A DNA stretch of 64,000 nt from a candidate division WWE3 bacterium (GTDB taxonomy: Bacteria > Patescibacteriota > WWE3 > UBA101185 > UBA10185), in the NCBI GenBank assembly GCA_014729135.1, contig WJKK01000001.1:593-64592 (forward strand). The letters are read 5' to 3'. Of this stretch, positions 28,970 through 61,040 are shown piece after piece. The position numbers and the translations under genes were made by a program. Positions within the stretch are counted from its first letter, which is position 1, and each line of letters starts with the position of its first letter. A model generated the notes under the pieces. It saw nothing but the letters and a program-made list of their open reading frames with translations. It searched no databases and was not told where the DNA came from.

Positions 28970-28975
28970 AGTTTC

Positions 28976-33913: not shown

Positions 33914-34000
33914 AGTTTGTCCTACTATAGTTGTCTTTCTGCAATCTTCTTTTTTCTATTAACAATTTCCTATTGTAAGGGAGTCTTTTAAGAACGCGCC

Positions 34001-35161
34001 CTAACTTTGCACTAAAACAGGCTCTTCCGACTTTCTCCAAAGCTTAAAGGCAATAACAAACAAGACCAAATAATAAGTAACCAAAAACACAGGCGAAATC
34101 TTTACCTCAATTTGCGCAAAAGGAAATCGTGAGAAAAACGCAACCGTATCAGCAAAAATATCCGCCGGAATATAAACCAAAAACGCCAAGATTTTCGACA
34201 AAAACATAAAATCCCCCACAAAAAATAGCAGCAAAAACACTCCTCCTAAAACCGTGGCTAAAGGCACCGTCCACAAAACAAGCGCATTAACCAGCAAACT
34301 AATTAAACTCACACGACCAAAATAAAACGAAATCAGAGGCCACACCAAAACTTGGGCAGCTACTGTAGCAACAAGATCTTCCTGTAAAAATGCGGGAACA
34401 CGCGTGGCAAAGCCCAAATTTTCAATAGGCGCCGAAAATAAAACCAAACTTAACGTAGCCATAAAGCTCAGCTGAAAGCTTAAACTAAATAAAAACGCCG
34501 GCTGCCATAAAACCATAGCCAAACCCGACACCACCGAAACGCGCAAAGTCGGGAAAGATCTTCCATAGTACTTGCCCAAATAAGCAATTGACCCCATTAT
34601 CCAGGAGCGAATCACCGGAGGATCAAAGCCCGACAAGAAAGCGTAAAACAGAGCCACAATTGCACCAACAATTAAACGCGTCCGATTATAAAAGGAGCCC
34701 AACAGCGCCCAAACTAAGGTGTAAACCAAGCTGATGTTGTAGCCGGAAACTACAACCACGTGAATTGTTCCCGTTTTTAAAAGCATTTCCTTAAATTTTG
34801 GCAATTTATGAAAGTGATCAATTCCTATGGTCATGCCCAATAGCAATTCGCTGGCAGGACTTGGAAGATATTTATGCGCTCGCGTAATTGCTGAGTTTCT
34901 TATTTGGTTAAGGGCTTTTGCAAATTTGGGAAACTTTTCTTCAATTGTTTTTTCGGTTGCTAAGGAGTTTTTGAGTTTTTGTTTTTGGCTTGAGCAAGTG
35001 ATAAAATCGCCATCGCAAAATGTGCGTACTCGCAGGAAGGTAAAAATTATTAGGAGTATTAAGGGGAGTTGCTGGCGCAACAATGAGACCCCTCCCCTAG
35101 TGGTTTCCGTCTTGGTGGAATCGTCTAAATTGTTTAAGTTTTTGCGCAAATTATTAAGCAT
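34001..35161 (-). CDS. comEC: ComEC/Rec2 membrane 'competence' domain protein
   Basis: Polytopic membrane protein. 'LLLGMTIGIDHFHKLPKFKEMLLKTGTIHVVVVSGYNISLVY' matches the ComEC competence-domain core. Confidence 0.7.
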   Translation of the reverse strand: MLNNLRKNLNNLDDSTKTETTRGGVSLLRQQLPLILLIIFTFLRVRTFCDGDFITCSSQKQKLKNSLATEKTIEEKFPKFAKALNQIRNSAITRAHKYLPSPASELLLGMTIGIDHFHKLPKFKEMLLKTGTIHVVVVSGYNISLVYTLVWALLGSFYNRTRLIVGAIVALFYAFLSGFDPPVIRSWIMGSIAYLGKYYGRSFPTLRVSVVSGLAMVLWQPAFLFSLSFQLSFMATLSLVLFSAPIENLGFATRVPAFLQEDLVATVAAQVLVWPLISFYFGRVSLISLLVNALVLWTVPLATVLGGVFLLLFFVGDFMFLSKILAFLVYIPADIFADTVAFFSRFPFAQIEVKISPVFLVTYYLVLFVIAFKLWRKSEEPVLVQS

Positions 35162-35243
35162 ACCTATTCGTTTTCTTGTTCTTGAACAAAGCCTTCAGAC
35201 CTGAAAGCCATGCTTCAAAGCCCTACTAAAGAGCAAGAAGCTA

Positions 35244-35999
35244 TCAAAAACTTATTAAGCCCTTGATTTTCTCCAACGTACTGGCATAAACTCCCGCCTT
35301 CTCCCCCAAATCAGCAAGCTTCGCATAAGGACGGTTTTTGATAATCTTTTCGGCAAAAGCGTCGCCAATTCCGGGCAGCTCTTTTAGTTCTTCAGCGGAG
35401 GCTTCGTTGACGTTTATAAGATCACCGGAGGAATCTGTGGGGGCGCCTGCTGCGCTCGTGTCCTCACCGGAAACATCCCCGGAATCCTTAGAAGTGGCGC
35501 TTTTAGAGCTCTCATTTTTTCCGGAATCCTCTTCTGTATCGTCGGATTCGTCATCACCGGCCTCCTCGCTGGGATCCGCTGCAGCAACAACCGGATCAAA
35601 CTCCAAAGTTTTCAGCTTATACTCGGGAGCCTCCGGCGCAACCTCCCATTCAAACGGAATGTAAATCTTCTGCTGATCTCGCAAGAAAGCGGAAAGATTT
35701 AAATTGTGCGAGAGCCACTTTTGCGACACCTCGCTGGTTGCACCTCCTGAAAGTGAAATTAAATCCGCTAAACGGGATCCTGCATCCAAAGAATAAATCC
35801 CGGGGCGATCCACAGCTCCGGATAAATCCACCGTAATTGAATCGGTTTCTTTAGATTCTTTAGGCACCTTTATCTCCCCCGAAGAGGCGGACAAAGCCTC
35901 TCTGTTGTAAAAGTATAGGTATGTGATTAAACCCGACACTAAGGCAATTGCGCTAACAAAATAATATAAGTTTTGGAATATGAAATCTTTTATGATCAT
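35244..35999 (-). CDS. comEA: ComEA-like DNA receptor (SLBB plus helix-hairpin-helix)
   Basis: N-terminal transmembrane helix. C-terminal 'INVNEASAEELKELPGIGDAFAEKIIKNRPY' is a tandem HhH motif. Confidence 0.8.
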   Translation of the reverse strand: MIIKDFIFQNLYYFVSAIALVSGLITYLYFYNREALSASSGEIKVPKESKETDSITVDLSGAVDRPGIYSLDAGSRLADLISLSGGATSEVSQKWLSHNLNLSAFLRDQQKIYIPFEWEVAPEAPEYKLKTLEFDPVVAAADPSEEAGDDESDDTEEDSGKNESSKSATSKDSGDVSGEDTSAAGAPTDSSGDLINVNEASAEELKELPGIGDAFAEKIIKNRPYAKLADLGEKAGVYASTLEKIKGLISF

Positions 36000-36406
36000 G
36001 ATTTATTTTTAATACATTTCAGTGGAGGTTGCAAGAACCAATATTCTAGTTTAAATAGAATATTGGTCAAAAATGGATGGTTCTTTGATGGATTTCCGCA
36101 TATTTCCCGCAGGTTTTGGAGACATGAATTTTTTTGTGGATAAGTGGATTTCTTGAAATTATTTCCCGCATATTTCCTGCAACAGTGGATTTTTGCCCTT
36201 AACACGAGGACTTTTCGGGAAGAAAGAGACACCCCCTTTTGAGCGAATTTTGAGCGAAGCGAAACCTGAGCGAAAAAGGGGGTGTCCTTTCTGACCTAGC
36301 TCTGTTAAATCTAAAAACAAAAAAGGAGGTGCTAAGCACCTCCCTTTTTCAAAAGGCTAGGCAAAACCTAACCTCTAAAAACTTCACTTAAATCACAAAT
36401 ATAAAA

Positions 36407-36703
36407 TTATTCCTTCAAAGCCTCCTCGATAAGTGACCGAAAAGCAGGATATTCACTGATTGACTTTACCAAAGAAACAAAACGGCGTTCGTTCAAGCGG
36501 TAAAACACCTGACGCCCTTTCTTCTTGTTCTTCAAGAAGCCAAGATCAGCTAAAACCCGCAAGTGGTGAGAAGCCAAGTTCTCCTCCACCCTAAGATTTT
36601 CAGCTACCTGAGAAACGTTCTTCTGTCCGTCACTCAAGAACTTCAAAATTTTTAATCGGTTATTATCCGAAAAAGCCTTTGAGACTTTTGTTAATTTAAC
36701 CAT
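36407..36703 (-). CDS. ArsR/SmtB-family transcriptional regulator
   Basis: 'NRLKILKFLSDGQKNVSQVAENLRVEENLASHHLRVLADLGFL' is a winged-HTH ArsR signature. Confidence 0.8.
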   Translation of the reverse strand: MVKLTKVSKAFSDNNRLKILKFLSDGQKNVSQVAENLRVEENLASHHLRVLADLGFLKNKKKGRQVFYRLNERRFVSLVKSISEYPAFRSLIEEALKE

Positions 36704-36762
36704 GCACCAATACTACAACATAAATTATACAAAGTCCAATCAATATTCGTTGGAATACTCAA

Positions 36763-38442
36763 TTACTTTTTATTCCTGTACTGTAGGGCTTCTGCTACAT
36801 GCGTCTCCTTAATTTTTTGCGAATCCGACAAATCTGCAATAGTTCGCGCCACTTTTAAAACCTTGAAATAAGATCTTGCAGAAAGATTAAAAGTATTTCC
36901 TGCCCTTTGGAGGAGTCTCTCTGCTTGCAAATCCGGCTTACAAAACTTTTTAATATGCTTGTTTTTCATTTCGGCGTTTAAATATATGGACGCCTTTTTT
37001 AGGCGTTCTCCCTGGATTTTGCGGGCACTCACTACTCTTTTGCGTATTTCGTTGGAAGTTTCTATATTTCCTGCAACAGTTTCTTTTGTAGCACCTGCAA
37101 AATCAAGAGAATCCGGACTACACACTCTGCCAATAGCTGCTGTCTTAACTTTGGAGTCTGCAGCCTCTCCCGCAAAACGAAGCTTTTCAGTATCAACGGG
37201 ACGAACACGACAAAATAAATCAATGCGATCCAGAATTGGACCCGACAACTTCTTCTTATAACGCCGGATTTGCCCGGGAGAGCAAGTGCAAGTTTGATTC
37301 GAGCCAAAAAACCCACAAGGACAGGGATTTCCTGCAGCAATTAAAATGAACCTGCAAGGAAACGTGAAACTCCCTAAACTGCGCGATATTGTCACCTTCC
37401 CCTCCTCCAAAGGTTGGCGAAGCATCTCTAAAATTGACCGCGGAAACTCAGGAAACTCATCCATAAAAAGCACGCCCCTATGCGCCAAACTAATCACGCC
37501 CGGCTGCGGAACACTCCCCCCACCAACCATGCCTGCATAAGAAATCGTATGATGAGGCGCTTTAAAAGGCCTTTTGCGAATTAAAGAGCCTCCCGGAGGA
37601 ATGGATCCAACAGCCGAATAGATCTTTGTAACTTCAAGAGATTCATTGTTTGTCAGTGGAGGTAAAATTGACCGAAAAGCCTTGGCTAGAAGGGTCTTTC
37701 CTGCTCCGGGAGGGCCAATCATTAGAAAGTTATGCCCACCTGCAGCTGAAATTTCTAGGGCTCTTTTTATCTTTGCTTGTCCTACAATGTCAGTCATGTC
37801 ATATTCAAATTTTGTTGCTTTTGTTGGAGGGTTTTGGTCTGTCTTGGGATTGTGAATGTACTTGGTAGTGGAATCTTGGGAATCCCCTTCCCCACTGGAA
37901 GAACAGGAAACTGAGAGAGGCCTTTTAACCGAGCCTCCCTTTAAAATTTCAAAAAGATCTACTAAATTTTCTATAGAAAAAACCTCCAAGCCAGGCACTG
38001 CAGAAACCTCGCGGACATTGGATTTAGGCACAAAAACCTTTTTATAACCCTTCTCCTTGGCAAAAAGCGCTAAAAGGAAGGCTCCCTTGGAGTGACGCAA
38101 ACTACCATCAAGTGACAACTCTCCAAAGAAAAGCGCCTTCTTAGGAATTTCCAGACCATGAATAAGCGCCAAAAGCCCTACAGCAATGGGCAAATCGTAA
38201 AAAGACCCGTGTTTAGGCACGTCAGCGGGAGCTAAATTCACTGTTATTCTTTTCTTGGAAGGAAAATCTAAGTCCAAATTCACCAAAGCCGTTTTTATGC
38301 GATGTCTACTTTCAGTAGTGGCCTTATTGGGAAGCCCCACAATATCAAACGAAGGCAAACCCCTACTTGCAATATCAACTTCCACTGTAATGCCTAAACT
38401 TTTCAGGCCAACAGGAGCAACTGAATCGACTTTAACTAACAT
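36763..38442 (-). CDS. comM: YifB/ComM-family Mg-chelatase-like AAA+ ATPase
   Basis: Lon-like N-terminal domain, Walker A 'GPPGAGKT', C-terminal ChlI-like region. Confidence 0.85.
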   Translation of the reverse strand: MLVKVDSVAPVGLKSLGITVEVDIASRGLPSFDIVGLPNKATTESRHRIKTALVNLDLDFPSKKRITVNLAPADVPKHGSFYDLPIAVGLLALIHGLEIPKKALFFGELSLDGSLRHSKGAFLLALFAKEKGYKKVFVPKSNVREVSAVPGLEVFSIENLVDLFEILKGGSVKRPLSVSCSSSGEGDSQDSTTKYIHNPKTDQNPPTKATKFEYDMTDIVGQAKIKRALEISAAGGHNFLMIGPPGAGKTLLAKAFRSILPPLTNNESLEVTKIYSAVGSIPPGGSLIRKRPFKAPHHTISYAGMVGGGSVPQPGVISLAHRGVLFMDEFPEFPRSILEMLRQPLEEGKVTISRSLGSFTFPCRFILIAAGNPCPCGFFGSNQTCTCSPGQIRRYKKKLSGPILDRIDLFCRVRPVDTEKLRFAGEAADSKVKTAAIGRVCSPDSLDFAGATKETVAGNIETSNEIRKRVVSARKIQGERLKKASIYLNAEMKNKHIKKFCKPDLQAERLLQRAGNTFNLSARSYFKVLKVARTIADLSDSQKIKETHVAEALQYRNKK

Positions 38443-39364
38443 AATAACGATCTCCTTCTTCTTTAATTAGGCCACGCAAAACCAAGGATGTAAGTGAGGA
38501 ATTTAAGCTGCTTATTGAAACCTGTTTGCCGGCTGCAACTAAAGCTTGGTTTAATTCATCGGCTGTTTGGGCGTTTGCTTTTAAACAAGATAGTATTTGC
38601 TTTTCTAAGGGGTCTAAATTGGGCAAACTGTCAAACAGATTTGCTGATGCACCGGATTTATTTTCCGGCAAACAAACTCCCGTATCCAGACCGACTTTTC
38701 CTCCCGCTTCCTCACCACGTTTTTCATAAAAAACCCTAATATCAAAAGGAGAACCAACTGCTCTAGCACCTTCCCGTAATAACTGACAAATGCCTTGAAA
38801 ATTATCAGAAAACACGTTTCCCGGAGCCACAAAAACTTGCCGCTTGTTCTTTTTAGCATAACCAGCCGTAATTAAAGTACCACTCCCCTTGCCGGCCTCC
38901 ACAACAAAAACAGCCTGAGATAACCCTGCCACAATGCGATTTCTTTTAGGAAAAGTCCATTTTTGAGCATGAGTATCCCCGGGATATTCCGAAACCACAA
39001 GACCACCCGAATCCAAAATTTCACGATGCAACTCCTTTTGAAAGCCCGGACAAACTCGATTAATTCCACAGGCCATAACTGCAATTGTCCTTCCTCCTGC
39101 TGATAAAGCTGCCCTATGCGCCTCCGCATCTACACCATACATAAAACCGGAAACAATAGTTATTCCTCTAGCTGCAAGGTCATAGACAAACTTTTGAGTA
39201 ACTCTTTTTCCATAAGGAGTCATTTTCCTGCTCCCTACTACAGCCAAACACGCCTTAAAAATTGCAGGATTGTACTCACCTCTTATATACAATTTCTCCG
39301 GGGGATCTCTTATTTCCCCAAGTAATGAAGGGTATTTCTTGGAATTTAAACTGATTACGTCCAT
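38432..39364 (-). CDS. dprA: DNA-processing protein DprA (Smf)
   Basis: 'AVVGSRKMTPYGKRVTQKFVYDLAARGITIVSGFMYGVDAEAHRAALSAGGRTIAVMACGI' is the DprA Rossmann core. Confidence 0.85.
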   Translation of the reverse strand: MDVISLNSKKYPSLLGEIRDPPEKLYIRGEYNPAIFKACLAVVGSRKMTPYGKRVTQKFVYDLAARGITIVSGFMYGVDAEAHRAALSAGGRTIAVMACGINRVCPGFQKELHREILDSGGLVVSEYPGDTHAQKWTFPKRNRIVAGLSQAVFVVEAGKGSGTLITAGYAKKNKRQVFVAPGNVFSDNFQGICQLLREGARAVGSPFDIRVFYEKRGEEAGGKVGLDTGVCLPENKSGASANLFDSLPNLDPLEKQILSCLKANAQTADELNQALVAAGKQVSISSLNSSLTSLVLRGLIKEEGDRYYVS

Positions 39365-44136: not shown

Positions 44137-44403
44137 TTTAAAGAGTCAAATATGTCAGTGGGAATGGAATATTTTAGGGATTTGTTATAATCGGGAAGCG
44201 GTTTTGTTGAGAATAATGGAATGAGACATAACAAAGCGCGAATGAAAGGTTTTCTTTTCAAAAACCTTTCAGGCAGCAAACAAACGCCTGTAACATCTGC
44301 CTTGAGATAACAAGTCGCTTTCAGCGACTTGTTAGGTGTAACAAAAAGCTCACTCACGATCGCTTTTTGTTAAACCAAATAAAATTGCTACGCAATTTTC
44401 TTT

Positions 44404-44480
44404 GGGCCGTTAGCTCAGCTGGCTAGAGCACTACGCTGGCAGCGTAGGGGTCGGGGGTTCGAATCCCCCACGGTCCACCA
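44404..44480 (+). tRNA. tRNA-Ala (anticodon GGC)
   Basis: GGGCCGT-TA-GCTCAGCTGGCTAGAGC-A-CTACG-CTGGCAG-CGTAG-GGGTC-GGGGG-TTCGAAT-CCCCC-ACGGTCC-A-CCA, with the G3.U70 Ala identity pair. Confidence 0.95.
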
Positions 44481-44661
44481 TTAAAGTGCCTTTGGCACTT
44501 TAATGCGCTTGTCAAAATGCAAAGCATTTTGACATGCCTGCAAAGTCTCGCCGAAGGCGAACTTTGCATATTTATTCCGCTCCGCGGAACTTTTTGGCTC
44601 AAGCAAATGTGAGCGAATGCGAACATTTGTTTGTTGCCTCACAAGTCCGAAGGACTTGTGA
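44481..44661. repeat. Hairpin-dense tRNA-Ala trailer: three perfect hairpins plus the tRNA-trailer repeat element (copy 2)
   Basis: TTAAAGTGCC/GGCACTTTAA (44481-44503), GTCAAAATGC/GCATTTTGAC (44511-44533), GCAAAGT..ACTTTGC (44540-44567), then 44596-44661 'CAAGCAAATGTGAGCGAATGCGAACATTTGTTTGTTGCCTCACAAGTCC-gaa-GGACTTGTGA', homologous to 28882-28946 in inverse orientation. Confidence 0.65.
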
Positions 44662-44755
44662 ACCAAAGGCGGATTGAGTATTTTGAAACTACGCGGAACT
44701 TTTTAGCAAATACATTTCAAAAAATAGGCAAGAGCCTTTAACTTCAACAACTGAC

Positions 44756-44971
44756 TTACTCCTCTTCGCACACCTCCTGTCCCCTGTTCAAGAGGACCAC
44801 AAGGAGAAGGAGCACCAAAATGAGGCCAATATCATCCACCCAACCCGCCAGAGGCAGGGCGTCGGGAACAGCATCGAGAGGCCATGCGGCATAGCCTCCT
44901 CCGAGTATTGCCAACACCCAACTAAGGGGGTGAACTTTTTTTTCGTTATCGCCGCTAACATTCTCAGACAT
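44756..44971 (-). CDS. DUF1232 (YkvA-like) small membrane protein. First gene encountered in the GC-rich island, last in its operon
   Basis: 'LDAVPDALPLAGWVDDIGLIL' DUF1232 signature. Strong SD (AGGAGG) 8 nt upstream of the ATG at 44971. The track ORF extends to 45073. Confidence 0.65.
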   Translation of the reverse strand: MSENVSGDNEKKVHPLSWVLAILGGGYAAWPLDAVPDALPLAGWVDDIGLILVLLLLVVLLNRGQEVCEEE

Positions 44972-45082
44972 AGAAAACCTCCTAATCTTCCTAGATACAC
45001 AAAAGAAAAGACCCTCGCGTGACCTCACCGGAACAACTCCGATGAAATACCTGCGAGGGCCTCTAAACAACAATCTTGCTGA

Positions 45083-46552
45083 TCATGGCACTATCCTGCC
45101 ATGGAGAACCATGGAGTTTGCGTAAATCTCAACCCGTAGTTCCACATCCTGGGGATAGGGACCAAAGGTGAGATCCGCAGAGCCAGATTCAATAACAACG
45201 GACTCATCCCGAGAGAAATGAGACCCGTCTGCCTTGGATATGGGAACATAGACACCCCCTGCACTCTGCAGCACATGCGGTGCCCTTTCTGTGGGAATCC
45301 CCAGATCCATCAGTACGGCGTTATACAACGTAGCGACATTGCAAGCGCCCGCGCCGATGATGTAACCACCGGAACTTCCCTTATTGTAGATGTAATCACC
45401 CGAAGTAGTCGCGTAACCGCTTGGGTGACATCCATTGAAGCTCCATCTAGTGCCTGCGGGCACGTAAATGGTATCCACACCATCCCCTCCGCAGGAAGGG
45501 GTCTCACGCTCCACCATCTCCTGCACGGTCATGATCATGTTATGCTCGAAAACCGGCATGATTAGCAGAGTCTCGCAGGTATCGAAACCTTCCCTGGGAT
45601 AGCAGGAGGTTATCGACTCCCCACGGGTGGGCTGGTCTTCCAGTTCGGCCAAGTAGGGCTCCCACCAAGCAGCTTCATACTTGACCATGACACGATTGGC
45701 ATATGTGTCATACGGCCCGGACCCGTTATAGCAACCTAGGGTCCCACGGATGTCTCCCGGATGAGCCTTCCAACACTGATCCGCCACCATAAAGGCAGCA
45801 CGTTGGTTGCCCTGCCAGGAGCCTTGAGCCATCTCCATCTTATCGGGGTGCCACCTGTCGTTGATCTGACACATCCCCCAATCGATGGAGTCTCCATTAT
45901 CACCCTGAACCAGGTCCCCATTGTCGTCGTACTGACGACTCCCGCCTGATTCGTACTCGCAGATAGAGAGTACAACCTCGGCAGGGATGGAAAACTGTGG
46001 CTCAGATTCCAGGAGGTAGGCATGTTCGACGATTGCTCGTCTAGACGGGTTGCCTACCTCGTCACGTGTCTCCCCCGTAAACGCACCCGTCAGCGGAGGG
46101 GGGTCGCGCGACCCACTCGTATCGGGGAAGAGATAGTTCCAGTCAAAACGCCCCTGCTCGACCGCTGTCCAGACAAGCTGAATACGATCTACGGGCGTTT
46201 GAGCGGCTGCATAGCGCCCTGCCGGAATCCAGCGACCCGGGAGAAGGAGTAGAAGTATGATGGGCAGGAAAAGCCATACAACTCCCAGAAGAATCGCTCC
46301 TTTGAGGAGGAACTCTATCTGGGCCACCCGCTTGTTTAGCCGGGCAATCATGTGCTCCGCAATCTCCCACCGCTGCGAGGGCGATAGGAAATCCGTGGCG
46401 CTCATTTGGCGCCGGGCACGATTAGCTGCTCCCGAGATGGCCCCGTAGGCAGCAACTCTGTCGTAAAGAACTTCGACATCCGTTACCAGCTCAACCCACT
46501 CCTGAACATCTTTTTCTGTAGTAGGCATGGCGCGCTTACTCACGTACATCAA
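45083..46552 (-). CDS. Membrane-anchored lytic-transglycosylase (SLT/lysozyme-like) domain protein with an uncharacterised C-terminal domain
   Basis: Transmembrane helix 'ILLGVVWLFLPIILLLLL'. 'ICEYESGGSRQYD...IDWGMCQINDRWH' resembles the E-S...G(L)MQI(N) catalytic core of family-1 lytic transglycosylases. GC-rich codon usage. Confidence 0.6.
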   Translation of the reverse strand: MMYVSKRAMPTTEKDVQEWVELVTDVEVLYDRVAAYGAISGAANRARRQMSATDFLSPSQRWEIAEHMIARLNKRVAQIEFLLKGAILLGVVWLFLPIILLLLLPGRWIPAGRYAAAQTPVDRIQLVWTAVEQGRFDWNYLFPDTSGSRDPPPLTGAFTGETRDEVGNPSRRAIVEHAYLLESEPQFSIPAEVVLSICEYESGGSRQYDDNGDLVQGDNGDSIDWGMCQINDRWHPDKMEMAQGSWQGNQRAAFMVADQCWKAHPGDIRGTLGCYNGSGPYDTYANRVMVKYEAAWWEPYLAELEDQPTRGESITSCYPREGFDTCETLLIMPVFEHNMIMTVQEMVERETPSCGGDGVDTIYVPAGTRWSFNGCHPSGYATTSGDYIYNKGSSGGYIIGAGACNVATLYNAVLMDLGIPTERAPHVLQSAGGVYVPISKADGSHFSRDESVVIESGSADLTFGPYPQDVELRVEIYANSMVLHGRIVP

Positions 46553-47513
46553 TGCCGGACCTCATCGCAGCCTCGTCGGCATCAACAATAGTCGTGGTCC
46601 CATCGAATTTTTCGGCGGCCAAGTGGCCGCGTTTGCCCTCGCGCTTATAGTGAACTGCCTTTAGCTGCTCCGGTGCAACTCCCATTGCCCGGAGACCAGA
46701 GCGAAGCTGAGTCCACTTGTTGGCGGGAAGGGTCACCCAGTCCGCGATAGCACCCATACCCTCCGCCTGCACACGTGCCACCAGCTCTTGGCTCAAGTGC
46801 GGCGTCGCTATGCTCACCGTTTCCTTGACCATTTTCTCGTACACCTTGAGACCGTGCACGAAGTTACTCTCCATGACGAGGGCCAAGAGTTCTTCGCGAT
46901 CATGCGTCTTAGAAGCCATGGCCGGAAAGATGAGGAAGGCACCCACCGAGGCGAGAGTCAACGCGCCCAAGACCAACATGGGTAGCTGAACCGAAAAGCG
47001 GGGCATGAGAAACTGGAGCCAACCGCGAATGCCGAAGAAGACCAGGATAACCCAGAGGGACGCGGCACCGGCACCAAGCATGATGAAGAAGATACGCGCA
47101 GGGGCTTTGAAGATGTAGCGCCGAAACGCCATACCCTCGCGCACACTGATAGAAAGACTGAGCGTACCCACAACAAACCTCACGAAATGCTCCGTGAGAG
47201 CCTGAAAGAACTTGATGGTGAAGCAGAGGCCCAGCACGATTCCGAACCACTCGACGGCGGGACGCGCACCTTCCCAGGGGGCGCCAACGGTTTCCCAGAG
47301 AGACACTAGGTGTGTCGCCTCCACGATGTTCTCGACGCCGGGGATACGCAGCCCCAGCAGAATTATGCCGAAACCTACCAGGGCAAAGAAGACCATACCT
47401 GCGTGCATGGCCTTCATAGCCGAAGTGGCTGTCGTGCCAAAGCGGGCTTCTGCCGCTGCCTTATCAAGATCTTTTAGATAGTCGGGGGGTTCGAACAACC
47501 TGATTTTACTCAT
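46536..47513 (-). CDS. Hypothetical polytopic membrane protein (island)
   Basis: ORF with about 4 hydrophobic helices. Overlaps its neighbours by a few bases, suggesting an operon. Confidence 0.5.
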   Translation of the reverse strand: MSKIRLFEPPDYLKDLDKAAAEARFGTTATSAMKAMHAGMVFFALVGFGIILLGLRIPGVENIVEATHLVSLWETVGAPWEGARPAVEWFGIVLGLCFTIKFFQALTEHFVRFVVGTLSLSISVREGMAFRRYIFKAPARIFFIMLGAGAASLWVILVFFGIRGWLQFLMPRFSVQLPMLVLGALTLASVGAFLIFPAMASKTHDREELLALVMESNFVHGLKVYEKMVKETVSIATPHLSQELVARVQAEGMGAIADWVTLPANKWTQLRSGLRAMGVAPEQLKAVHYKREGKRGHLAAEKFDGTTTIVDADEAAMRSGIDVRE

Positions 47514-47528
47514 CTTTTCTCACTCCTT

Positions 47529-48023
47529 TTATTGGGGCGGAGGAATTCTTAGTTCCTGCCCCACGTATAGTGAACTGCTGAATGACAGGCCATTTTCAGT
47601 AGCAATAGCTCGAGCGAATTCTGCCAAACTCAAACTACCGCGCGGATATTGGCGAGCAACTGCGTAAAAACCCTCACCGCTTTGAACGATATGAATAGCC
47701 TCCTCCCCCGACGAGGAAGGAGTTGGAGTCTGAGTTGGTTCGGATTCAGGTTCAGAAGGCTCCTCCGTTTCGGAAGGAGGGGCAATCGCGGACGAGGTCG
47801 GTGTGGCAGTAGGCGCAGGTGTCATGTCCTCATCCTGCACAGGCTCCGACGTCTCCTCGGGTTTCCCCATAGGAGTCGCCGGCGACGTGGCGGTGGGCGT
47901 AGGGGGCATGGCGGTTAAAGCCATGTCCTCCGGCACTAGCGCCACGTCCTGCTTGAGCAGGAAGAAAACGGCAATTAGCGCGAGCACCCACCAGTACTTC
48001 TTAAACAACTTGATTGGGTTCAT
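47529..48023 (-). CDS. Secreted/anchored Pro/Thr/Glu-rich protein with C-terminal LysM domain (island)
   Basis: N-terminal transmembrane or signal segment. C-terminal 'HIVQSGEGFYAVARQY...LAEFARAI...YVGQELRIP' is a LysM signature. Confidence 0.65.
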   Translation of the reverse strand: MNPIKLFKKYWWVLALIAVFFLLKQDVALVPEDMALTAMPPTPTATSPATPMGKPEETSEPVQDEDMTPAPTATPTSSAIAPPSETEEPSEPESEPTQTPTPSSSGEEAIHIVQSGEGFYAVARQYPRGSLSLAEFARAIATENGLSFSSSLYVGQELRIPPPQ

Positions 48024-48115
48024 CGTTTTTACCTCACTTTCGATTCACTTTTGATTATTAACAAGCTAAGAGGCGGAGTGACCGCTGGGATACACCCCGC
48101 CTCAAGATTTGCACT

Positions 48116-49510
48116 CTACAGCGTCCCCGTCGTCATGACGAGGAGAACGAGTCCGACCAGAGAGGCCCCCAACACATCCCAGGGCTGCGGGAGCTGCGCT
48201 CCCATAAACCACTCAAACTTCATAAGGGGCGACTTCCAGTAAGGGGATGACTTACTCCCCCCTCCGAGAGACACGACCATGAGTCCCATGAAGATAGTGA
48301 AAACGAACCAGAAGGTTCGCCACGCAAGACCCAGGCCAAGAAACCGGAGCAAGAAGAATACCAGGCCAGCGCCGAAAACAACAAAGATAGAGAGAGCGTC
48401 CTTTCGACGCCACATATCGCTCAAGTAGAGGAGGAAGCTGAGGAGGAAACAGAAGTAGATCACCAGGGAAAAGATAGCCCCCTCAGGAGTCTCCCCCATC
48501 AAGACGGCGTAGGCGGCCTCACCAACCAGCACGGGTTGACGAGCATCTACGGTAAGTCCTAGAGTCTGAGACCATAAACCCAGGATTCCGTAGATCAGCC
48601 CGACAATCCCGTGCAGCTGAAAGTACCAGCTCCAGGGAGACAGGTCGAACTGCGGAAAAACGGAGACGAGAACCATGATGATGAGGTTGAGGAGAATCCA
48701 CCAAAGCGCCGAAACATTCCCTTGAAACAGGAAATTATCGACGGCCCCCGCCCGAAAGACAAACAGGTTGAAACCGGTCAAGATGACTGGCACCAGGATG
48801 TCTTGGGCCCACTCACCGCGAGCGTTAGCCTCGAGCGAGGACGAAACAACAAGGATCAGCAGTATGACAAAGAGAGCTACATGGAGAGGCTCCAGGGAAG
48901 CCAGGCGAATGGAGATCAAGCGCCCCTGCAACTCAAGATAGACGCCGGTGCCCTCGAAACTGGGAAGCTCGGGAATGACACCGTTGTTTACGGCCACCCG
49001 AACCCCGATGAGAGCTACTGCGACAGTGATGAGTATGATAAGGGTGCCGACGAAGGGAGCAGCGGTTAGGAAGTCTCCTGCCTTACTGCCCTTCTTCTTG
49101 TCACCATCTTTCTTGCCCTTCTCGCCTCCTTCCTTACCTTTGTCACCGTCCTTTTTGGGCTTTTCCTCTTTGGGCTCATTTTGCCCTTTGGATCCGCCAT
49201 TGCCACCGTTCCCCTTCTCCTCCTCTTCCTTATTCACTTCCTCCTCCTCAGAGGCAACGGCCGCGGGTGCAGCTGAGGGCTGCGGCGCCGGAGGCGCAGC
49301 AGTGGATGCATGAGCCTTCTCATAAGCCTCCTGGATACGTCCGGCTACGATTGCAGTATTCCGGGCGCCGTCGAAAAACTTCCGCAATTCTCCCACCCCC
49401 CTGTTATAAACCCAAACTACCTGCTCAGGGGACAGGGCCGCCACAATACCATGCTCATAGAGCTTGGTATGCAGCTCCTCCAGCGTATAATCACTCAACT
49501 TCTTAGCCAT
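48116..49510 (-). CDS. Hypothetical protein: N-terminal soluble domain, K/E/G-rich low-complexity linker, roughly 10-helix membrane domain (island)
   Basis: ORF with GC-rich codon usage and a 'KGKEGGEKGKKDGDKKKG' low-complexity stretch. Confidence 0.55.
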   Translation of the reverse strand: MAKKLSDYTLEELHTKLYEHGIVAALSPEQVVWVYNRGVGELRKFFDGARNTAIVAGRIQEAYEKAHASTAAPPAPQPSAAPAAVASEEEEVNKEEEEKGNGGNGGSKGQNEPKEEKPKKDGDKGKEGGEKGKKDGDKKKGSKAGDFLTAAPFVGTLIILITVAVALIGVRVAVNNGVIPELPSFEGTGVYLELQGRLISIRLASLEPLHVALFVILLILVVSSSLEANARGEWAQDILVPVILTGFNLFVFRAGAVDNFLFQGNVSALWWILLNLIIMVLVSVFPQFDLSPWSWYFQLHGIVGLIYGILGLWSQTLGLTVDARQPVLVGEAAYAVLMGETPEGAIFSLVIYFCFLLSFLLYLSDMWRRKDALSIFVVFGAGLVFFLLRFLGLGLAWRTFWFVFTIFMGLMVVSLGGGSKSSPYWKSPLMKFEWFMGAQLPQPWDVLGASLVGLVLLVMTTGTL

Positions 49511-49922
49511 GATCTTCTCCTTTTTTGGCTATAACGAACACTACTCCACTAAAAACGAATTTTTGAAATTTCAAGGTGCTGGGCAGCACCTTTTTTGAGG
49601 TGCAGGCAATATATCAAAATCTATGGGATAAGTCAATCTAAAGTATGTGTGACAATGATGCGGGTTTTTGGTTTTTATAGGAGTCAAATACACACAGAAC
49701 TTAGCACTCTTATTTTAAATTTTTGAAAGCTATGGGTAGAAATTCTCTATCTCTAATATAAAGCCCAAATCAGATATAGTTGCGGGCATATACGAGAACA
49801 GAATGCCCTGGAGTCTGGACTTCACCCACGCAACTAAAGTTGCGAGCTATAAGTACAAGGGGATATAAAAACCTTCCTCCTAAAACCAGAGCATTTAAAA
49901 AACTAAAAACCCCCGGGGACCC

Positions 49923-51125
49923 CTACCCCTCCTCCACAACAGAACCACCAAAAACCACCCGCCTATTAGGCAAAGTCCGCAAATTATAAGTCTTCACAAC
50001 CTCCTCCGGAGTAAAAACCCGCCGCTCCGGCAACGTAGGCAAAACCTCCGCCAAACGCCACTGCAAAGCCTCCACACCCTCCCCCGTTACTGCTGAAATC
50101 CCCAAAACGTCAACCCCCTCCGCTGCAAACTGCTCCACAATAGCCTCAAACGACTCCTTAACCTCCGTAATATCCAACTTGTTAATCACAACTATTTCCT
50201 TTTTCTGAGCCAATTCCTTGCTGTAGTCGGCCAACTCCGCCCGAATAGTCTTGTAAGCATCCCAAGCAGCGGTTGCTAACTCTTCAGGAGCGCCTATGAC
50301 GGTTTCTGCGCCTTTCTCAAAGTCAATTCCCCCAAAAGGATCTATCACATGCACCAACAAGCGCGTTCTTTCTACGTGGCGCAAAAATTCGTCTCCAAGG
50401 CCTTTGCCTTTACTGGCGCCTTCTATTAATCCGGGGATGTCGGCTATTAGGACGGAGTTTACGGATCCCTTCCCCAAACCGCCCGCCGGCAACTCCAAAA
50501 CCCCCAAATTAGGACTTAAAGTTGTAAACGGATAGCTTGCAGTTTTTGCATTAGATTTAGTTAATTGATTAATTAATGTACTCTTTCCGGCATTGGGGAG
50601 CCCCACCAAGCCAATATCGGCTATCATTTTGATCTCTAAAAGAAGCTCTTTTTCCTCGCCTTTAGTACCTTTTGTAAATTGCCTGGGGGCTTGATTTGTA
50701 GAACTCCTGAATCTCCAATTTCCTTTACCGCCAACGCCTCCCCTACAAATGAGTAAGCTTTGTCCACTTTCTACTAAGTCGCCTACCAAAAGCTCACCAT
50801 CTTTACCTTTTTTTCCATCTTCTCCCCTGCGCGCCTCATAAACCAAAGTCCCAACAGGAACCAAAATCTCCAAATCCTCCCCATCTTTACCGGAGCATTT
50901 CTTTTTACCGCCACGTGCGCCATCGCCTGCTTCATAAAGAGGCTTGGCTCTAAAATCCCGTAAAGTTGCCATATTATGCGTAGCCACAATGTAAACATCT
51001 CCTCCGTCGCCTCCATCGCCTCCATCAGGGCCTCCCTTGGGGATAAATTTGGCGCGTTTAAAGGAAACGTGACCATCTCCGCCATCGCCGGCTTTAACTT
51101 GTATTTTTGCTTTGTCTATTAACAT
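49923..51125 (-). CDS. obg: GTPase Obg/CgtA
   Basis: N-terminal glycine-rich Obg fold 'VKAGDGGDGHVSFKRAKFIPKGGPDGGDGGDGGDV'. G1 motif 'GLVGLPNAGKSTL'. Confidence 0.85.
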   Translation of the reverse strand: MLIDKAKIQVKAGDGGDGHVSFKRAKFIPKGGPDGGDGGDGGDVYIVATHNMATLRDFRAKPLYEAGDGARGGKKKCSGKDGEDLEILVPVGTLVYEARRGEDGKKGKDGELLVGDLVESGQSLLICRGGVGGKGNWRFRSSTNQAPRQFTKGTKGEEKELLLEIKMIADIGLVGLPNAGKSTLINQLTKSNAKTASYPFTTLSPNLGVLELPAGGLGKGSVNSVLIADIPGLIEGASKGKGLGDEFLRHVERTRLLVHVIDPFGGIDFEKGAETVIGAPEELATAAWDAYKTIRAELADYSKELAQKKEIVVINKLDITEVKESFEAIVEQFAAEGVDVLGISAVTGEGVEALQWRLAEVLPTLPERRVFTPEEVVKTYNLRTLPNRRVVFGGSVVEEG

Positions 51126-51577
51126 ATAAATTTAACTGAGGTACTCTTTTGAGAAGAAGCCTCCTTGCGAAAAGCTTTATCAAAAGTAACCAAATAAGCA
51201 ACCTCGTTTTTTTCAGCAATTACAAAATGGAAGGCATCACGAGGATCGAGCTTAATTTCAGTCATCAAATCAAGATATTCTAACATATTCACCATTCCGG
51301 AGGGCAACGGGAGAATTGTAGCTGCGCTAAGAACTATAAATGTAGACAATAAAACGGCTATGCTTTCGCGGGAGTGCTTGTATGTACGTAGAAGGACGTA
51401 GTAGACCTCATCAAGTGTTAAGGCGCTTAAGATTAGTTCAGCCTGTTTTTTACAAAAAGTTGCGTAGAGCTTTTTTGCCCTTTTATGATCGGGATGAGGC
51501 TTAACAAGATAAGCTATTATTACATTGGAGTCAAAGTAGACGGTTGAATTTTCCTTTATTAAAGGTTCTTGATTCAT
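51119..51577 (-). CDS. PIN-domain (VapC-like) toxin
   Basis: 'YFDSNVIIAYL...', 'D..HFVIAEKN.VAYLVTFDKAF' PIN acidic residues. Confidence 0.65.
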   Translation of the reverse strand: MNQEPLIKENSTVYFDSNVIIAYLVKPHPDHKRAKKLYATFCKKQAELILSALTLDEVYYVLLRTYKHSRESIAVLLSTFIVLSAATILPLPSGMVNMLEYLDLMTEIKLDPRDAFHFVIAEKNEVAYLVTFDKAFRKEASSQKSTSVKFIC

Positions 51578-51643
51578 CTTTCAGTAATTGATTAAAGGTT
51601 TACAAGCCCACCGGTTAGTGCCTCCAAAGTTTGGATGAATCCG

Positions 51644-51997
51644 TTAGAAATCCATAGAGGTATAACGTGTCCGTTTAATGACTCCTAAAATCTCCTCACG
51701 AGAAAGCTTAGGGCCATATTTAATAAGTCCGGCCATACCTAAAGCACCCGCCATACCCTCCCCTAAATGAAAGGTAACCCATTTTTGTCGGCTTGATTTG
51801 GTCTCCTGTGGAGTTTCCTTTGCGTTAAAATCTGCCGTCACTGCAACCCCTTTAAAATTCGAATTATCCTGCTCTAAATAAGAAGAAGCTGAAGGTGAGT
51901 TGAGACGGGAAACTTCAAGCAGACCTAGCTTCTTAGCTATATCAAAAGGAACTTTTATTGAGAGAGAGTCTTTGATTCTACTAATTTTCACCACCAT
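51644..51997 (-). CDS. AbrB/MazE/SpoVT-like swapped-hairpin DNA-binding protein (candidate antitoxin for the PIN protein)
   Basis: 'VVKISRIKDSLSIKVPFDIAKKLGL' resembles the AbrB/MazE N-terminal fold. 66-bp gap to the PIN gene. Confidence 0.45.
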   Translation of the reverse strand: MVVKISRIKDSLSIKVPFDIAKKLGLLEVSRLNSPSASSYLEQDNSNFKGVAVTADFNAKETPQETKSSRQKWVTFHLGEGMAGALGMAGLIKYGPKLSREEILGVIKRTRYTSMDF

Positions 51998-53322: not shown

Positions 53323-54552
53323 CTAGCGCATGTAATTCAACGGATTCTGCGCAACACCGCCATACTTAACCATAAAGTGAACATGCGGACCTGTAGAACG
53401 CCCCGTATTCCCCAGTAAACCAATCATCTGACCACGACTTACACTTTCGCCATAACCCACATCCAGGCGGCTCATATGCCCATAAACCGTTTCGTAGCCA
53501 TTACCATGGTCAATTCTAATATGCAGACCAAGGCCCCAAGGATCCCAACCGGAGCGTGTCACCACTCCCCCCGTACAAGCAAACAAAGGAGGCATTGCCG
53601 TACCTGCAGGGCTGGCGATATCTATTCCATTGTGATACCACGTAAAATACTGCGTAATAATGCGCACAGAAGTTGGCCAAACACAATAAGTAGAGCTTGG
53701 AGTTGGCGCTGGCGTAGGCGTTGTGGTTCCCGGAACTGTCCCCGGAATGGAGGGGGTTACAGGCACAACCGGAGTCGGTACAGAAGCTCCGGGGATGACT
53801 AGCTCTGTGCCTAAAGCCAAAGATGACGTGTCCAAAATGTAGTTGAAATCAGCAACAGCCTGCGGAGGAACGTCATACTTTTGCGCAATTGAGCTTAAAG
53901 TGTCGCCGGATTCTACTGTGTGAATTAAGCCGGAAACAGGTGGAATTGTGATTTCATCCCCTACTGAAAGGATAGAGTTGTCGGTTAAGTTGTTGACGTA
54001 TTTTAAAGCGTCTACTGAAATTTTAAATCGGTTACCTATGGAGGAAAGTGTATCACCTCCTTGAACCGTGTAAGCAAAGGATTCTGCACGTTTTCGGCTG
54101 TCGGGAACTGTAGTTAAAGCGGTGTTTTTTCTGGGAATTATGTCGGTTGTTGAGGCCAAATAGTCGGGGTTTAGCTCTTGGCTGCTGACAAATCTGGTGC
54201 TGTTGAATACTTCGCCAAATGTGAAAACTATGAAAGCTGCTGACATGACAAAGAATGTTGCAATGGGGCGGCCTAGACGTCCTCGAGACCAGATTAGTTT
54301 GGCGGTTAAAAACTCCTTGGAAAGGTTGACTAAACGGATGGATCCGGTGAAAAGACTGAAAAATGCTTTTATCAGCTGATGCATTTTAGCGACAATATAG
54401 GTTCCGCAGGCTTTCGTAAAGAGCTTAAGGGCGTTTAGCATTTTATTAAACTGGTTAGTTCCTTCAGGTGAAAAGCCCTCAAATCTAAGCTGAAAGTAGT
54501 TGGGAGAGTTTGAGGAATCCCTTAAGGAAGCGTTTTTCCTGTAAAAAGGCAT
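53323..54552 (-). CDS. LysM (x2) plus M23-family metallopeptidase
   Basis: 'YTVQGGDTLSSIG...', 'HTVESGDTLSSIAQKY' LysM repeats. 'HNGIDIA', 'YGHMS' and 'GNTGRSTGPHVHF' are M23 zinc-ligand motifs. Confidence 0.8.
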   Translation of the reverse strand: MPFYRKNASLRDSSNSPNYFQLRFEGFSPEGTNQFNKMLNALKLFTKACGTYIVAKMHQLIKAFFSLFTGSIRLVNLSKEFLTAKLIWSRGRLGRPIATFFVMSAAFIVFTFGEVFNSTRFVSSQELNPDYLASTTDIIPRKNTALTTVPDSRKRAESFAYTVQGGDTLSSIGNRFKISVDALKYVNNLTDNSILSVGDEITIPPVSGLIHTVESGDTLSSIAQKYDVPPQAVADFNYILDTSSLALGTELVIPGASVPTPVVPVTPSIPGTVPGTTTPTPAPTPSSTYCVWPTSVRIITQYFTWYHNGIDIASPAGTAMPPLFACTGGVVTRSGWDPWGLGLHIRIDHGNGYETVYGHMSRLDVGYGESVSRGQMIGLLGNTGRSTGPHVHFMVKYGGVAQNPLNYMR

Positions 54553-59523: not shown

Positions 59524-60858
59524 TTAAATCTCAGAACGAGGGGTTAACAACAACACCCACACCGGAACCGTTAAAAAATCCTCGGAAGAATCATCAAAGA
59601 CGTTTCTGGTCAACAACAAACCGGTCTTCAACTGCTCCTTTAAAGAAGAAAACAAACCAAGGGAAGAAACCTCGGCTACACCATATTCCCTCTCAGAAAG
59701 AAGATCTGTATAACTAACACTCACAGGATAAAATGTACGCTCCGGACGCGTCACTAGGAAATCTATATCCACCCCATCCTCCTCTAAATAATTCACCTCA
59801 TTACCTCTAATAAAATGTAAAAAGACTGCATTTTCCACCAGTTTACCTACATCATCAAAAGGCTTAGAATAAAAAAGACTACGTAAACCGGGATCTATCA
59901 CATAGGGGCGCTTTGCTGCGCGCACACGATTCTTAAACTTGAAAGAATATTTTTCCACCTCAAAAAAAAGGTAGGATAGCGCAAGCGCAGAAACATATTC
60001 CTTAGCGGAAGTGTCCGTAATTCCCACATTGCGAGCCAAGGAACGATAACTATATTTATTCCCCAAATTTGTAAGCAAATAGTAAGCAAGCTTTTCCAGC
60101 TCCTCGGCACTTCTAAAATCGAAACGCGGAACTATATCCGTATAAATAACGGCGCGAATGTAGTCGCGTAAATAGCGAAGGCGAATTTCGGCATCATTAG
60201 AAGCAAGCGCTTCCGGAAAACCTCCCTCAACAAGATATTGCTCAAAAAGGCCCAAAATAATGGGTGCTTCCTTTAAATTAGACAAATATGTTTCTCGGAG
60301 TGTCTCCCCGGAGAAGTGGGGCTGACCTTTAAAAAGAAGATATTCCCGGAAGTTAAACGGAAAAATCTCAAAGGAAAGCGTTCTACCGGTCAATTTCGTT
60401 GCTAACTCAGAGGAAAGCAAACGAGCGTTGGAGCCTGTAATGGTTATGCGCAAATCCTCACACGTGTCATATTTTGTCCTAATCCACTGCTCCCAGGAAG
60501 GAACATTTTGAACTTCGTCTAGAAAAACATATTTATCCCCTTCCGGGCGCTTGAGAGAAAGATACTCTCTAAACAAAGAATCCAGCAACTCTACACTTGC
60601 AGAATTTTTAACAAAAAAAGGATCTTCAAAGTTTAAATAAAAAATGTTTTCAGAAGGAATGCCTTTATCCAAAAGACCATTGATAAGCTGAAAAACCAAC
60701 ACAGACTTCCCTGCTCTCCGTACTCCCATAAGAGCAAGGACAACGCGACTTGTTGTAAGCGCCTTAAAAACTTGAGGAAAAATATCGCGAGGAACGTACT
60801 TCTTAAAGCCTTCGTCCCAGTGTTTGTTCTGTTGTTGTAGTAAATTCCTTAGGTGCAT
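59524..60858 (-). CDS. COG1373-type AAA+ ATPase (AAA_14 plus DUF4143)
   Basis: Walker A 'GVRRAGKS'. Walker B 'VFLDEVQ'. C-terminal DUF4143-like region. Confidence 0.7.
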   Translation of the reverse strand: MHLRNLLQQQNKHWDEGFKKYVPRDIFPQVFKALTTSRVVLALMGVRRAGKSVLVFQLINGLLDKGIPSENIFYLNFEDPFFVKNSASVELLDSLFREYLSLKRPEGDKYVFLDEVQNVPSWEQWIRTKYDTCEDLRITITGSNARLLSSELATKLTGRTLSFEIFPFNFREYLLFKGQPHFSGETLRETYLSNLKEAPIILGLFEQYLVEGGFPEALASNDAEIRLRYLRDYIRAVIYTDIVPRFDFRSAEELEKLAYYLLTNLGNKYSYRSLARNVGITDTSAKEYVSALALSYLFFEVEKYSFKFKNRVRAAKRPYVIDPGLRSLFYSKPFDDVGKLVENAVFLHFIRGNEVNYLEEDGVDIDFLVTRPERTFYPVSVSYTDLLSEREYGVAEVSSLGLFSSLKEQLKTGLLLTRNVFDDSSEDFLTVPVWVLLLTPRSEI

Positions 60859-61040
60859 TTTATAATATGCATAAACTCAATATTATGCCTAATTATAATA
60901 TGCAGAAGAGATTAAAGCAATAAATAGGCGTTAGATAAAAGATAAGATAATAGAAAAGCTTCTTTGATGACATGAATTTTTATCTAACAAGGCTAAAAAC
61001 TCCGGGCCAGAAATCTCAAGAAACCCGGAAAACCGTAAAA

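Follow-up and report, generated by a model that had tools for sequence, protein, structure and literature searches.

In a 64,000-nucleotide (nt) stretch of the candidate division WWE3 genome assembly GCA_014729135.1 (contig WJKK01000001.1, positions 593 to 64,592; hereafter the window), an island rich in guanine and cytosine (GC) lies between a tRNA-Ala gene and obg. It carries five minus-strand genes for a wall enzyme, a LysM protein, a DUF1232 protein and two polytopic membrane proteins. The block is compositionally foreign, and it very probably represents a real acquired insertion into the short obg/tRNA-Ala spacer. By analogy it is, with somewhat better than even probability, an acquired envelope-breaching module that resembles the pairing of VirB6 with VirB1 in monoderm type IV secretion systems (T4SS). 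A secretion-assisting role of the copy in the window is a tentative proposal, held with less than even confidence. The features concerned are the following, in order of position:

44404 to 44480, plus strand: tRNA-Ala(GGC), found by ARAGORN and scored at 64.9 bits by Rfam
44481 to 44700, plus strand: tRNA-trailer array of six near-perfect hairpins (RNA fold z = -8.85)
44717 to 44737, minus strand: weak terminator-like hairpin AGGCTCTTGCCT with a T-run, read from the sequence, just past the DUF1232 stop codon
44756 to 44971, minus strand: DUF1232 (YkvA-like) membrane protein of 71 amino acids (aa), by Pfam DUF1232
45083 to 46552, minus strand: wall enzyme of 489 aa (GF360_00170 at NCBI, with 481 aa and the start at 46528), by Pfam matches below the cut-off and family alignments
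46536 to 47513, minus strand: 325-aa membrane protein (GF360_00175), by transmembrane (TM) prediction and homologues
47529 to 48023, minus strand: membrane-anchored LysM protein of 164 aa, by Pfam LysM
48116 to 49510, minus strand: 464-aa polytopic membrane protein (GF360_00185), by TM prediction and secondary structure
49608 to 49636, minus strand: promoter-like site (TTGACT, 17 nt, TG-TATATT) with 10/12 matches in a consensus scan
49895 to 49922, minus strand: presumed obg terminator GGGGTCCCCGGGGG with a T-run, a GC hairpin directly after the obg stop codon, read from the sequence
49923 to 51125, minus strand: obg (GTPase; Pfam GTP1_OBG 6.7e-53), syntenic in more than 20 WWE3 loci and outside the insertion

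The GC content was 0.54-0.58 at 45-49 kb and 0.36-0.48 nearly everywhere else in a 1-kb profile of the window. In a 200-nt profile, values of about 0.36-0.45 gave way to 0.51-0.61 over roughly 44.75-49.5 kb, with steps at about 44.7 and 49.5 kb and an AT-rich trough (GC 0.34-0.38) at 49.5-49.8 kb. These steps agree with the abrupt changes at about 44750 and 49550 that had been read from the letters of the DNA in an original prediction, which had also described the codons of the five genes as G/C-rich and unlike those of all other genes of the window. The GC content at third codon positions (GC3) of the five island genes (44756-49510) was 0.57, 0.60, 0.68, 0.56 and 0.66, compared with a mean of 0.408 (standard deviation (SD) 0.061, maximum 0.526) for the 40 other open reading frames (ORFs) of at least 90 aa in the window. 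All five lay above all 40 others (z = 2.6-4.4; Mann-Whitney p = 8e-7). The tetranucleotide distance between the island and the rest of the window was 0.45, about 8 SD out, while other 4.8-kb windows gave 0.167 ± 0.035 with a maximum of 0.27. The difference was thus significant when windowed GC, tetranucleotides and codon usage were computed. As host membrane-protein genes (Wzy/TPR, the DsbD-like gene, ComEC and MscL) have an ordinary GC3 of 0.40-0.48, coding for membrane proteins does not in itself explain the shift. The sole other GC bump of the window, at 20-22 kb, is a different phenomenon located in the second codon positions of a gene for 2995 aa (GC2 0.57, GC3 0.46). This giant ORF (18917-27904) encodes a Peptidase_S74 (endosialidase chaperone) domain near the C-terminus and has a MerR-like helix-turn-helix match at the N-terminus.

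A scan with Obg, taking one genome per species, gave about 20 WWE3-type loci with obg 50-70% identical. Their common backbone reads sortase / rho / LysM-M23 / (PIN etc.) / obg, tRNA-Ala(GGC), (DsbD-like, thioredoxin), Wzy-TPR, and none of them carries the island genes at obg/tRNA-Ala. The same tRNA-Ala adjoins obg in 16 related loci and is a backbone landmark outside the insertion. Since 13 of 17 loci have less than 200 bp between obg and the tRNA, both flanks of the GC-rich block belong to one conserved neighbourhood. In L005 the two are separated by 107 bp and the tRNA is oriented as in the window; this locus and L004 are the closest available relatives (obg 64% and 70% identical, respectively), and both lack the operon. 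Presence or absence of the island at this tRNA in relatives, which had been proposed as a check, came out as sites that are empty or differently filled in about 20 WWE3 genomes. The alternative of a chimeric contig join, also raised in the original prediction, was contradicted by the synteny of both flanks with relatives across the insertion point.

Different cargo is found at the same spacer in L004, L006, L007 and L001, and by these comparisons the obg/tRNA-Ala spacer is a recurrent variable site in the WWE3 lineage. L004 contains a 136-aa membrane ORF and L007 has 0.8 kb of extra DNA. The spacer of L006 (11545-14403) encodes five small membrane proteins of 311, 150, 92, 226 and 141 aa on the obg strand, none of them with a Pfam match or recognisable as a VirB2-type pilin; this 4.5-kb cassette is GC-enriched (GC3 0.46-0.61 versus 0.31-0.38) and is followed by an AbiEi-like gene. 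In L001 (9-1694), two separate genes beside obg encode an SLT-type protein of 281 aa and a VanW-like protein of 275 aa; the genes are inverted and show mild GC excess, and the VanW-like protein is 49% identical to the C-terminal domain of the window enzyme. Since such partial cargo relatives (L001, L003) show milder GC excess, a donor cannot be named.

The proximity to tRNA-Ala that had been emphasised originally was confirmed, whereas an integrase-type tRNA island was not. Tests for the latter gave no recombinase domain in any island ORF or neighbour (Pfam, NCBIfam, PHROG), and neither a repeat of the tRNA 3' end nor a meaningful flanking repeat of at least 11 nt was detected in 44200-50000. 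Hairpins homologous to the array of six sit 3' of tRNA-Ala in L005 and L006, and a 74-nt stretch of the array recurs with 85% identity beside tRNA-Ser at 28898-28970. The 275 nt from the tRNA to the island are native hairpin array and not island DNA. The array looks like a lineage-specific tRNA-trailer element, perhaps with a role in termination or processing; an Rfam search around the insertion site gave the tRNA as the sole RNA family. The classic integrase-type tRNA island was rejected given the missing integrase, the missing att repeat and the native array that separates the island from the tRNA. Like tRNA-associated islands, the block is compositionally deviant, lies near a tRNA, carries accessory envelope genes and is missing from relatives; unlike them, it has neither an integrase nor a direct repeat of the tRNA 3' end, and the native 220-nt array intervenes. 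The term variable spacer, flanked by two conserved genes, suits the insertion site better. As an island, the block is of a familiar kind, but it is recombinase-less and located at a lineage-specific hotspot. No integrase, phage or conjugation genes turned up in the window scans, as the original prediction had stated.

As the array 3' of tRNA-Ala is native, the left junction is placed at about 44.70-44.75 kb, while the right junction lies between 49.51 and 49.90 kb, where the obg terminator would mark the right limit of host DNA. Approx. 300 nt of AT-rich DNA separate this terminator from the promoter-like site, which is located about 100 nt upstream of the 464-aa gene; the count of such sites in the region was not above chance. 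A hairpin in the 5' untranslated region (49570-49598) and then an AGGAG ribosome-binding site lie between the promoter-like site and the gene. For the 412-nt spacer upstream of the operon, no relative was found anywhere and no special fold was obtained. At the other end, the hairpin at 44717-44737 is the probable end of the operon, as read from its sequence; it was absent from the output of the consensus scan. Taken together, the block looks like a self-contained operon of about 44.72-49.64 kb with its own promoter-like site and a terminator-like end.

The five genes are transcribed in the order 464-aa polytopic protein, LysM protein, 325-aa membrane protein, 489-aa enzyme and DUF1232 protein, with spacings of 92 nt, 15 nt, a 17-nt overlap and 111 nt, the last value referring to the DUF1232 start at ATG 44971. 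With the NCBI start of the enzyme, the overlap becomes a 7-nt gap. Exact matches identify three of the products as GF360_00170, GF360_00175 and GF360_00185 of a candidate division WWE3 bacterium, encoded on a contig of 864,248 bp. The original description as a peptidoglycan-remodelling and membrane-protein operon was borne out by profiles passed for DUF1232 and LysM, by SLT_3 and VanW matches below the cut-off and by predicted TM proteins. The two proteins described there as polytopic have 8-10 and 3-5 predicted helices.

The wall enzyme consists of a cytoplasmic N-terminus (aa 1-85), a TM anchor (aa 86-106; 46235-46297), an SLT-like (lytic-transglycosylase-like) domain (aa ~160-300; 45653-46075) with E201-S202, DWGMCQIND and CYNGSGP..YA, and a VanW-like domain (aa 313-489; 45086-45616) with C404, H426 and D449. 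A single TM helix precedes both wall-directed domains, which would therefore face outward. Motifs of the E-S, GLMQ and AYNxG types in that order are typical of family 1 lytic transglycosylases. Like these enzymes (Slt70/MltE type; Pfam SLT, SLT_3), the family has E-S, G-[LM]-[CM]-Q-[IV] and Y-N-G-x-G in the canonical order. Conservation of E201-S202, G226-M-C-Q-I and Y275-N-G-S-G extends over 18 family members, and the series in the family alignment reads E-S ... DWG[ML]CQIND ... CYNGSGP..YA. The family differs from these enzymes in that none of its members passes Pfam SLT (best 25.9 versus 27 bits) and that Asp replaces the catalytic Glu in two of them. With 35 relatives among 1.84 billion representative proteins, it is rare. 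A metagenome scan with the family gave distant SLT proteins alone and without the module.

The large C-terminal domain had originally been called unknown. This was revised to a divergent VanW-like domain on the basis of weak PF04294 matches together with a conserved Cys, His and Asp. Such matches occur in six family members; relatives scored 13.5-19.3 bits, and P0021, a protein of the same SLT family, passes at 39.1 bits. C404 and Asp 442, 449 and 460 are invariant in the subfamily of the window enzyme and H426 is conserved in the alignment, so that C404, H426 and D449 are candidate equivalents of the Ldt4/Ldt5 triad. Sequence and profile searches of PDB with the enzyme and with its C-terminal domain gave no match. 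Work from 2024 established VanW domains as L,D-transpeptidases/carboxypeptidases whose triad is Cys-His-Asp (PMC11348318). Like the VanW L,D-transpeptidases Ldt4 and Ldt5 of Clostridioides difficile, the domain is predicted to be the extracytoplasmic part of a membrane-anchored protein, its subfamily conserves the Cys (GAGAC404N), His426 and Asp449, and the PF04294 matches are weak but repeated. In contrast to these enzymes, it is fused to an SLT-like domain and not to PG_binding_4 or G5. The SLT-like and VanW fusion widens the contexts of an enzyme family to which an activity was first assigned in 2024. The domain after the SLT part varies within the family and is either Peptidase_M23 (P0003, P0009, P0012-P0016) or VanW-like. 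M23 at the VanW position of sister modules suggests a cutting or trimming role rather than cross-linking.

The 464-aa protein begins with a helical domain (aa 1-68), continues with a linker rich in Lys, Glu and Gly (aa 69-144) and has 8-10 predicted TM helices. A search of 5.8 billion proteins (8000 word-sharing candidates) gave the self match alone, and the low-complexity linker may have blunted this search. The protein is colinear with the truncated big protein of L113 at 26% identity (E = 6e-4 in a small local database). For the 325-aa protein, 3-5 TM helices are predicted, along with about 120 soluble aa at the C-terminus, and nothing was matched in Pfam, NCBIfam or PHROG. Its homologues occupy the same module position in L003 (319 aa, 59% identity), L114 (28%, E = 3e-39) and L113 (27%, E = 8e-25), and it is a conserved partner of the enzyme. 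In the LysM protein, a Pro/Thr/Glu-rich linker joins the TM helix (aa 12-30) to the LysM domain (aa 111-161), which passes the Pfam LysM profile (23.3 bits, cut-off 20.9). The protein shares 45% identity with the LysM counterpart encoded upstream of the 319-aa gene of L003. The DUF1232 protein passes its Pfam profile (4.4e-8; 33.2 bits, cut-off 23) and has one predicted TM helix and a GC3 of 0.57. It most likely comprises 71 aa from ATG 44971, which is preceded by an AGGAGG site 7 nt upstream, while the mechanical ORF reaches TTG 45073. This protein is specific to the window copy of the module. Beyond LysM-type matches, NCBIfam and PHROGs added little for the island proteins, the DUF1232 protein matching an uncharacterised PHROG (1.4e-7).

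The other four genes correspond in order to a module found in all eight contexts retrieved (L003 and L108-L114): a big polytopic protein, a small secreted or peptidoglycan-binding protein, a membrane protein of about 300 aa and an anchored SLT-VanW or SLT-M23 enzyme. Upstream of the enzyme, these contexts encode polytopic proteins of 465-505 aa, secreted or lipoprotein-like proteins of 88-144 aa and membrane proteins of 288-380 aa. The loci are composed as follows:

L109: big 465 aa, small 97 aa, middle 306 aa, enzyme 478 aa
L110: big 505 aa, small 98 aa, middle 288 aa, enzyme 481 aa
L111: big 470 aa, small 104 and 135 aa, middle 296 aa, enzyme 489 aa
L112: big 471 aa, small 88 aa, middle 380 aa, enzyme 628 aa
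L114: big 485 aa, small 144 aa, middle 314 aa, enzyme 413 aa
L113: big truncated, small none, middle 340 aa, enzyme 424 aa
L108: big 204 and 104 aa, small 124 aa, middle 290 aa, enzyme 457 aa
L003: big not seen, small a LysM protein, middle 319 aa, enzyme truncated

True homologues of the window enzyme and of the 325-aa protein exist among these contexts, and weak homology extends to the 464-aa protein. The big and middle proteins of L108-L112 are families separate from those of the window. L114 pairs the big protein of one module flavour with the middle protein of the other, which makes the module a single evolutionary unit whose parts can be replaced. The copies in L113 and L114 have a GC content of 0.52-0.59, like that in the window. 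In L112, an IS30-like transposase fragment (3-836) lies 416 nt upstream of the module in a host with a GC content of 0.33, which hints at another mobility route.

The link to type IV secretion comes from three of these loci. A divergently oriented gene for a coupling ATPase of 735 aa lies 2-5 kb from the module in L108, L109 and L110, in elements that abut rpsB-tsf. The gene calls split it in L109 (591-2762), while tblastn showed an intact gene whose product matches the L108 protein with 75% identity along 727 aa. The ATPase passes Pfam TrwB_AAD_bind (30.4 versus 20.5 bits) and DUF87 (28.8 versus 23.2 bits) and has TraD/VirD4 matches in NCBIfam, which identifies it, at the level of profiles, as a type IV coupling protein of the VirD4/TrwB type. 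According to a survey from 2025 (PMC12102498), Patescibacteria have monoderm-type T4SS, and their VirD4-like type IV coupling protein genes are common and mostly orphans far from virB4. Their VirB1 homologues often contain M23 or LysM domains and seldom adjoin virB4, VirB6 is too divergent to be detected in some classes, and monoderm VirB1 proteins are two-domain enzymes (PMC12102498).

The nearest comparison is with the monoderm (MPF-FATA) VirB1 and VirB6 proteins, namely PrgK/PrgH of pCF10, TraG of pIP501 and CwlT/ConG of ICEBs1 (PMC12102498 for Patescibacteria). Like MPF-FATA VirB1, the window enzyme would combine an N-terminal anchor, a lytic-transglycosylase-like domain and a peptide-acting second domain, a match of architecture alone, and it is encoded directly after polytopic membrane proteins. 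As in Patescibacterial VirB1, sister copies of the module carry M23 and LysM, and a VirD4/TrwB-type coupling ATPase is located beside three related module loci. Unlike in MPF-FATA VirB1, the second domain is VanW-like and not CHAP or NlpC/P60. No VirB4, VirB3, VirB8 or relaxase was found with the window module and no ATPase is encoded in cis, and the window enzyme had no tblastn match in 72,556 plasmid records. The cargo would represent a version of the channel-plus-wall-hydrolase pair known from monoderms, the new parts being the SLT-VanW fusion and two membrane-protein families without annotation.

In the proposed mechanism, the SLT-like domain with E201-S202 would cut glycan strands, and the VanW-type Cys-His-Asp domain would remodel, trim or re-link stem peptides. 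The wall would be opened only where the two membrane proteins are located, allowing a trans-envelope complex to be inserted there. The 464-aa and 325-aa proteins would form the membrane part of this complex and the LysM protein would tether the assembly to peptidoglycan. A coupling ATPase may feed the complex in some genomes; here, an energising ATPase, if any, would be encoded outside the island. The module would probably have been taken up by natural transformation and integrated through recombination within the conserved flanks, since competence genes (comEC, comEA, dprA) are present in the window, and neither a recombinase nor an att site is. In the DNA-uptake gene set at 33014-39364, ComEC occurs as separate Lactamase_B and Competence ORFs; the set also has ComEA, DprA and a ComM-like Mg-chelatase ATPase. 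A further-reaching version, in which the module is the missing envelope-spanning partner of the orphan VirD4-like ATPases, serves VirB4-independent translocation of DNA or protein and belongs to cassettes swapped at hotspots such as obg/tRNA-Ala by transformation and not by integrases, is regarded as improbable.

Several results weigh against an acquired module of the VirB6/VirB1 kind. For the window enzyme, SLT_3 (16.9 bits) and VanW (PF04294; 16.5 bits) both remain below the cut-off of 27. The 8-10-TM protein occupies the position expected for a VirB6-like channel, but neither it nor the 325-aa protein matched any Pfam, NCBIfam or PDB family in sequence and profile searches, VirB6/TrbL included, and no similarity to VirB6, PrgH or TrbL was detectable. 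AlphaFold2 models were unusable, with a predicted local distance difference test score (pLDDT) of 47 for the 464-aa protein (single sequence) and 42 for the 325-aa protein (two sequences). Both proteins showed no homology to their positional equivalents in L108-L112 by blastp, hmmsearch or hhalign. Neither ATPase nor VirB4, relaxase or pilin genes occur in the island or the 64-kb window, the ATPase was present in three of the five loci with enough upstream sequence, and no VirB4 was seen in the related module loci examined. The secretion link is thus one of gene order and a shared enzyme family. Regarding transfer, the GC3 of the four module genes is 0.15-0.25 above that of their neighbours in L108, L109, L110, L112 and L113 and exceeds even that of small soluble genes of the same ATPase-linked element. 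A module-wide GC3 excess in every host is not explained by a single recent transfer. The original proposal of an acquired cell-wall-channel or secretion-assisting cassette stands for acquisition, with WWE3 sites empty or differently filled, and the ATPase beside the module relatives in L108, L109 and L110 points in the direction of secretion.

The main rival is wall remodelling unlinked to secretion, either in the cell's own growth, division and turnover or as an attack on the wall of the host bacterium at contact, with the membrane proteins as regulators or anchors. It is considered rather unlikely, yet part of the evidence agrees with it. The island has no ATPase, a secreted SLT-M23 relative stands at valS in L002 without the module, and the L112 module lies beside the IS30-like gene with no ATPase seen. 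The host already has a LysM-M23 enzyme at 53323-54552, and Patescibacterial VirB1-like genes are mostly not near virB4 (PMC12102498). However, the strict four-gene order is kept in very divergent copies and the adjacency of the coupling ATPase in three loci would stay unexplained. The module is moreover accessory: about 20 related genomes lack it, and so it does not serve core growth. A further rival is a leftover prophage lysis cassette, in which a holin-like membrane protein would be combined with an endolysin and a LysM protein. The mix of peptidoglycan hydrolase, LysM and membrane proteins is superficially similar to such a cassette, and the PHROG match of the DUF1232 protein is in line with it. 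Against this very improbable origin, tblastn with the enzyme, the 325-aa and the 464-aa proteins gave no match in 50,697 phage records (nor did these three island proteins match the plasmid collection), and IMG/VR contained no relative of the 325-aa protein by sequence or family profile and only distant SLT matches. Phage structural, replication and integrase genes are missing, and the 85-aa cytoplasmic head and stable TM anchor of the enzyme are unlike endolysins.

The remaining two explanations concern the insertion itself. Ancient resident genes whose composition was shaped by selection for expression or membrane insertion would account for the GC3 excess of the module in all hosts, above neighbours in the same ATPase-linked element, and for the related genes with mild GC excess at the same site in L001. 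Still, the operon is absent from L004, L005 and about 18 more relatives, host membrane-protein genes of the window have ordinary GC3 and the tetranucleotide signature deviates too, which makes this account highly unlikely. An assembly or binning artefact, in which a GC-rich fragment of another organism was joined into the WWE3 contig, could explain the abrupt steps and the lack of a mobility gene, but it is barely credible. Conserved WWE3 gene order continues on both flanks and two chimeric junctions would have to restore it exactly; the operon-like ends of the block fit the host spacer, relatives hold other cargo at the same site, and related modules likewise lie inside lower-GC DNA in five independent assemblies.

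Patescibacteria depend on host-cell contact, and transport across their own wall is largely unexplained. A mobile module with a two-headed wall enzyme, sometimes beside a coupling ATPase, is a concrete candidate to test. The obg/tRNA-Ala site is in addition a clean case of recombinase-free cassette turnover in a reduced genome with competence genes.

Outside the island, the window is a normal stretch of Patescibacterial chromosome, with L7/L12, a glycogen gene set, MreB, sortases, ArgRS, NDK, ComEC/ComEA/DprA, Rho and Obg. At obg, a PIN-domain gene (51119-51997) shares 7 nt with the obg start and has a small AbrB/MazE-like ORF in front of it. Both genes stand next to obg in L001 as well, and the PIN gene does so in L006; most other WWE3 loci lack the pair. 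Two neighbouring AAA_14/DUF4143 ATPase genes are located at 59524-62273, and the same family is found at tRNA-Ala in L006 (15951-17237). Single-gene GC-rich islets were observed in the WWE3 relatives L004 (4023-5147) and L010 (1021-2040), with a GC content of 0.55-0.57 in genomes of 0.39-0.43; their products are secreted proteins without a Pfam match. At the left end of the window (49-3732) lies the gene for a probable surface adhesin, a protein of 1227 aa in which Laminin_G_3 (concanavalin-like lectin) repeats occur six times.

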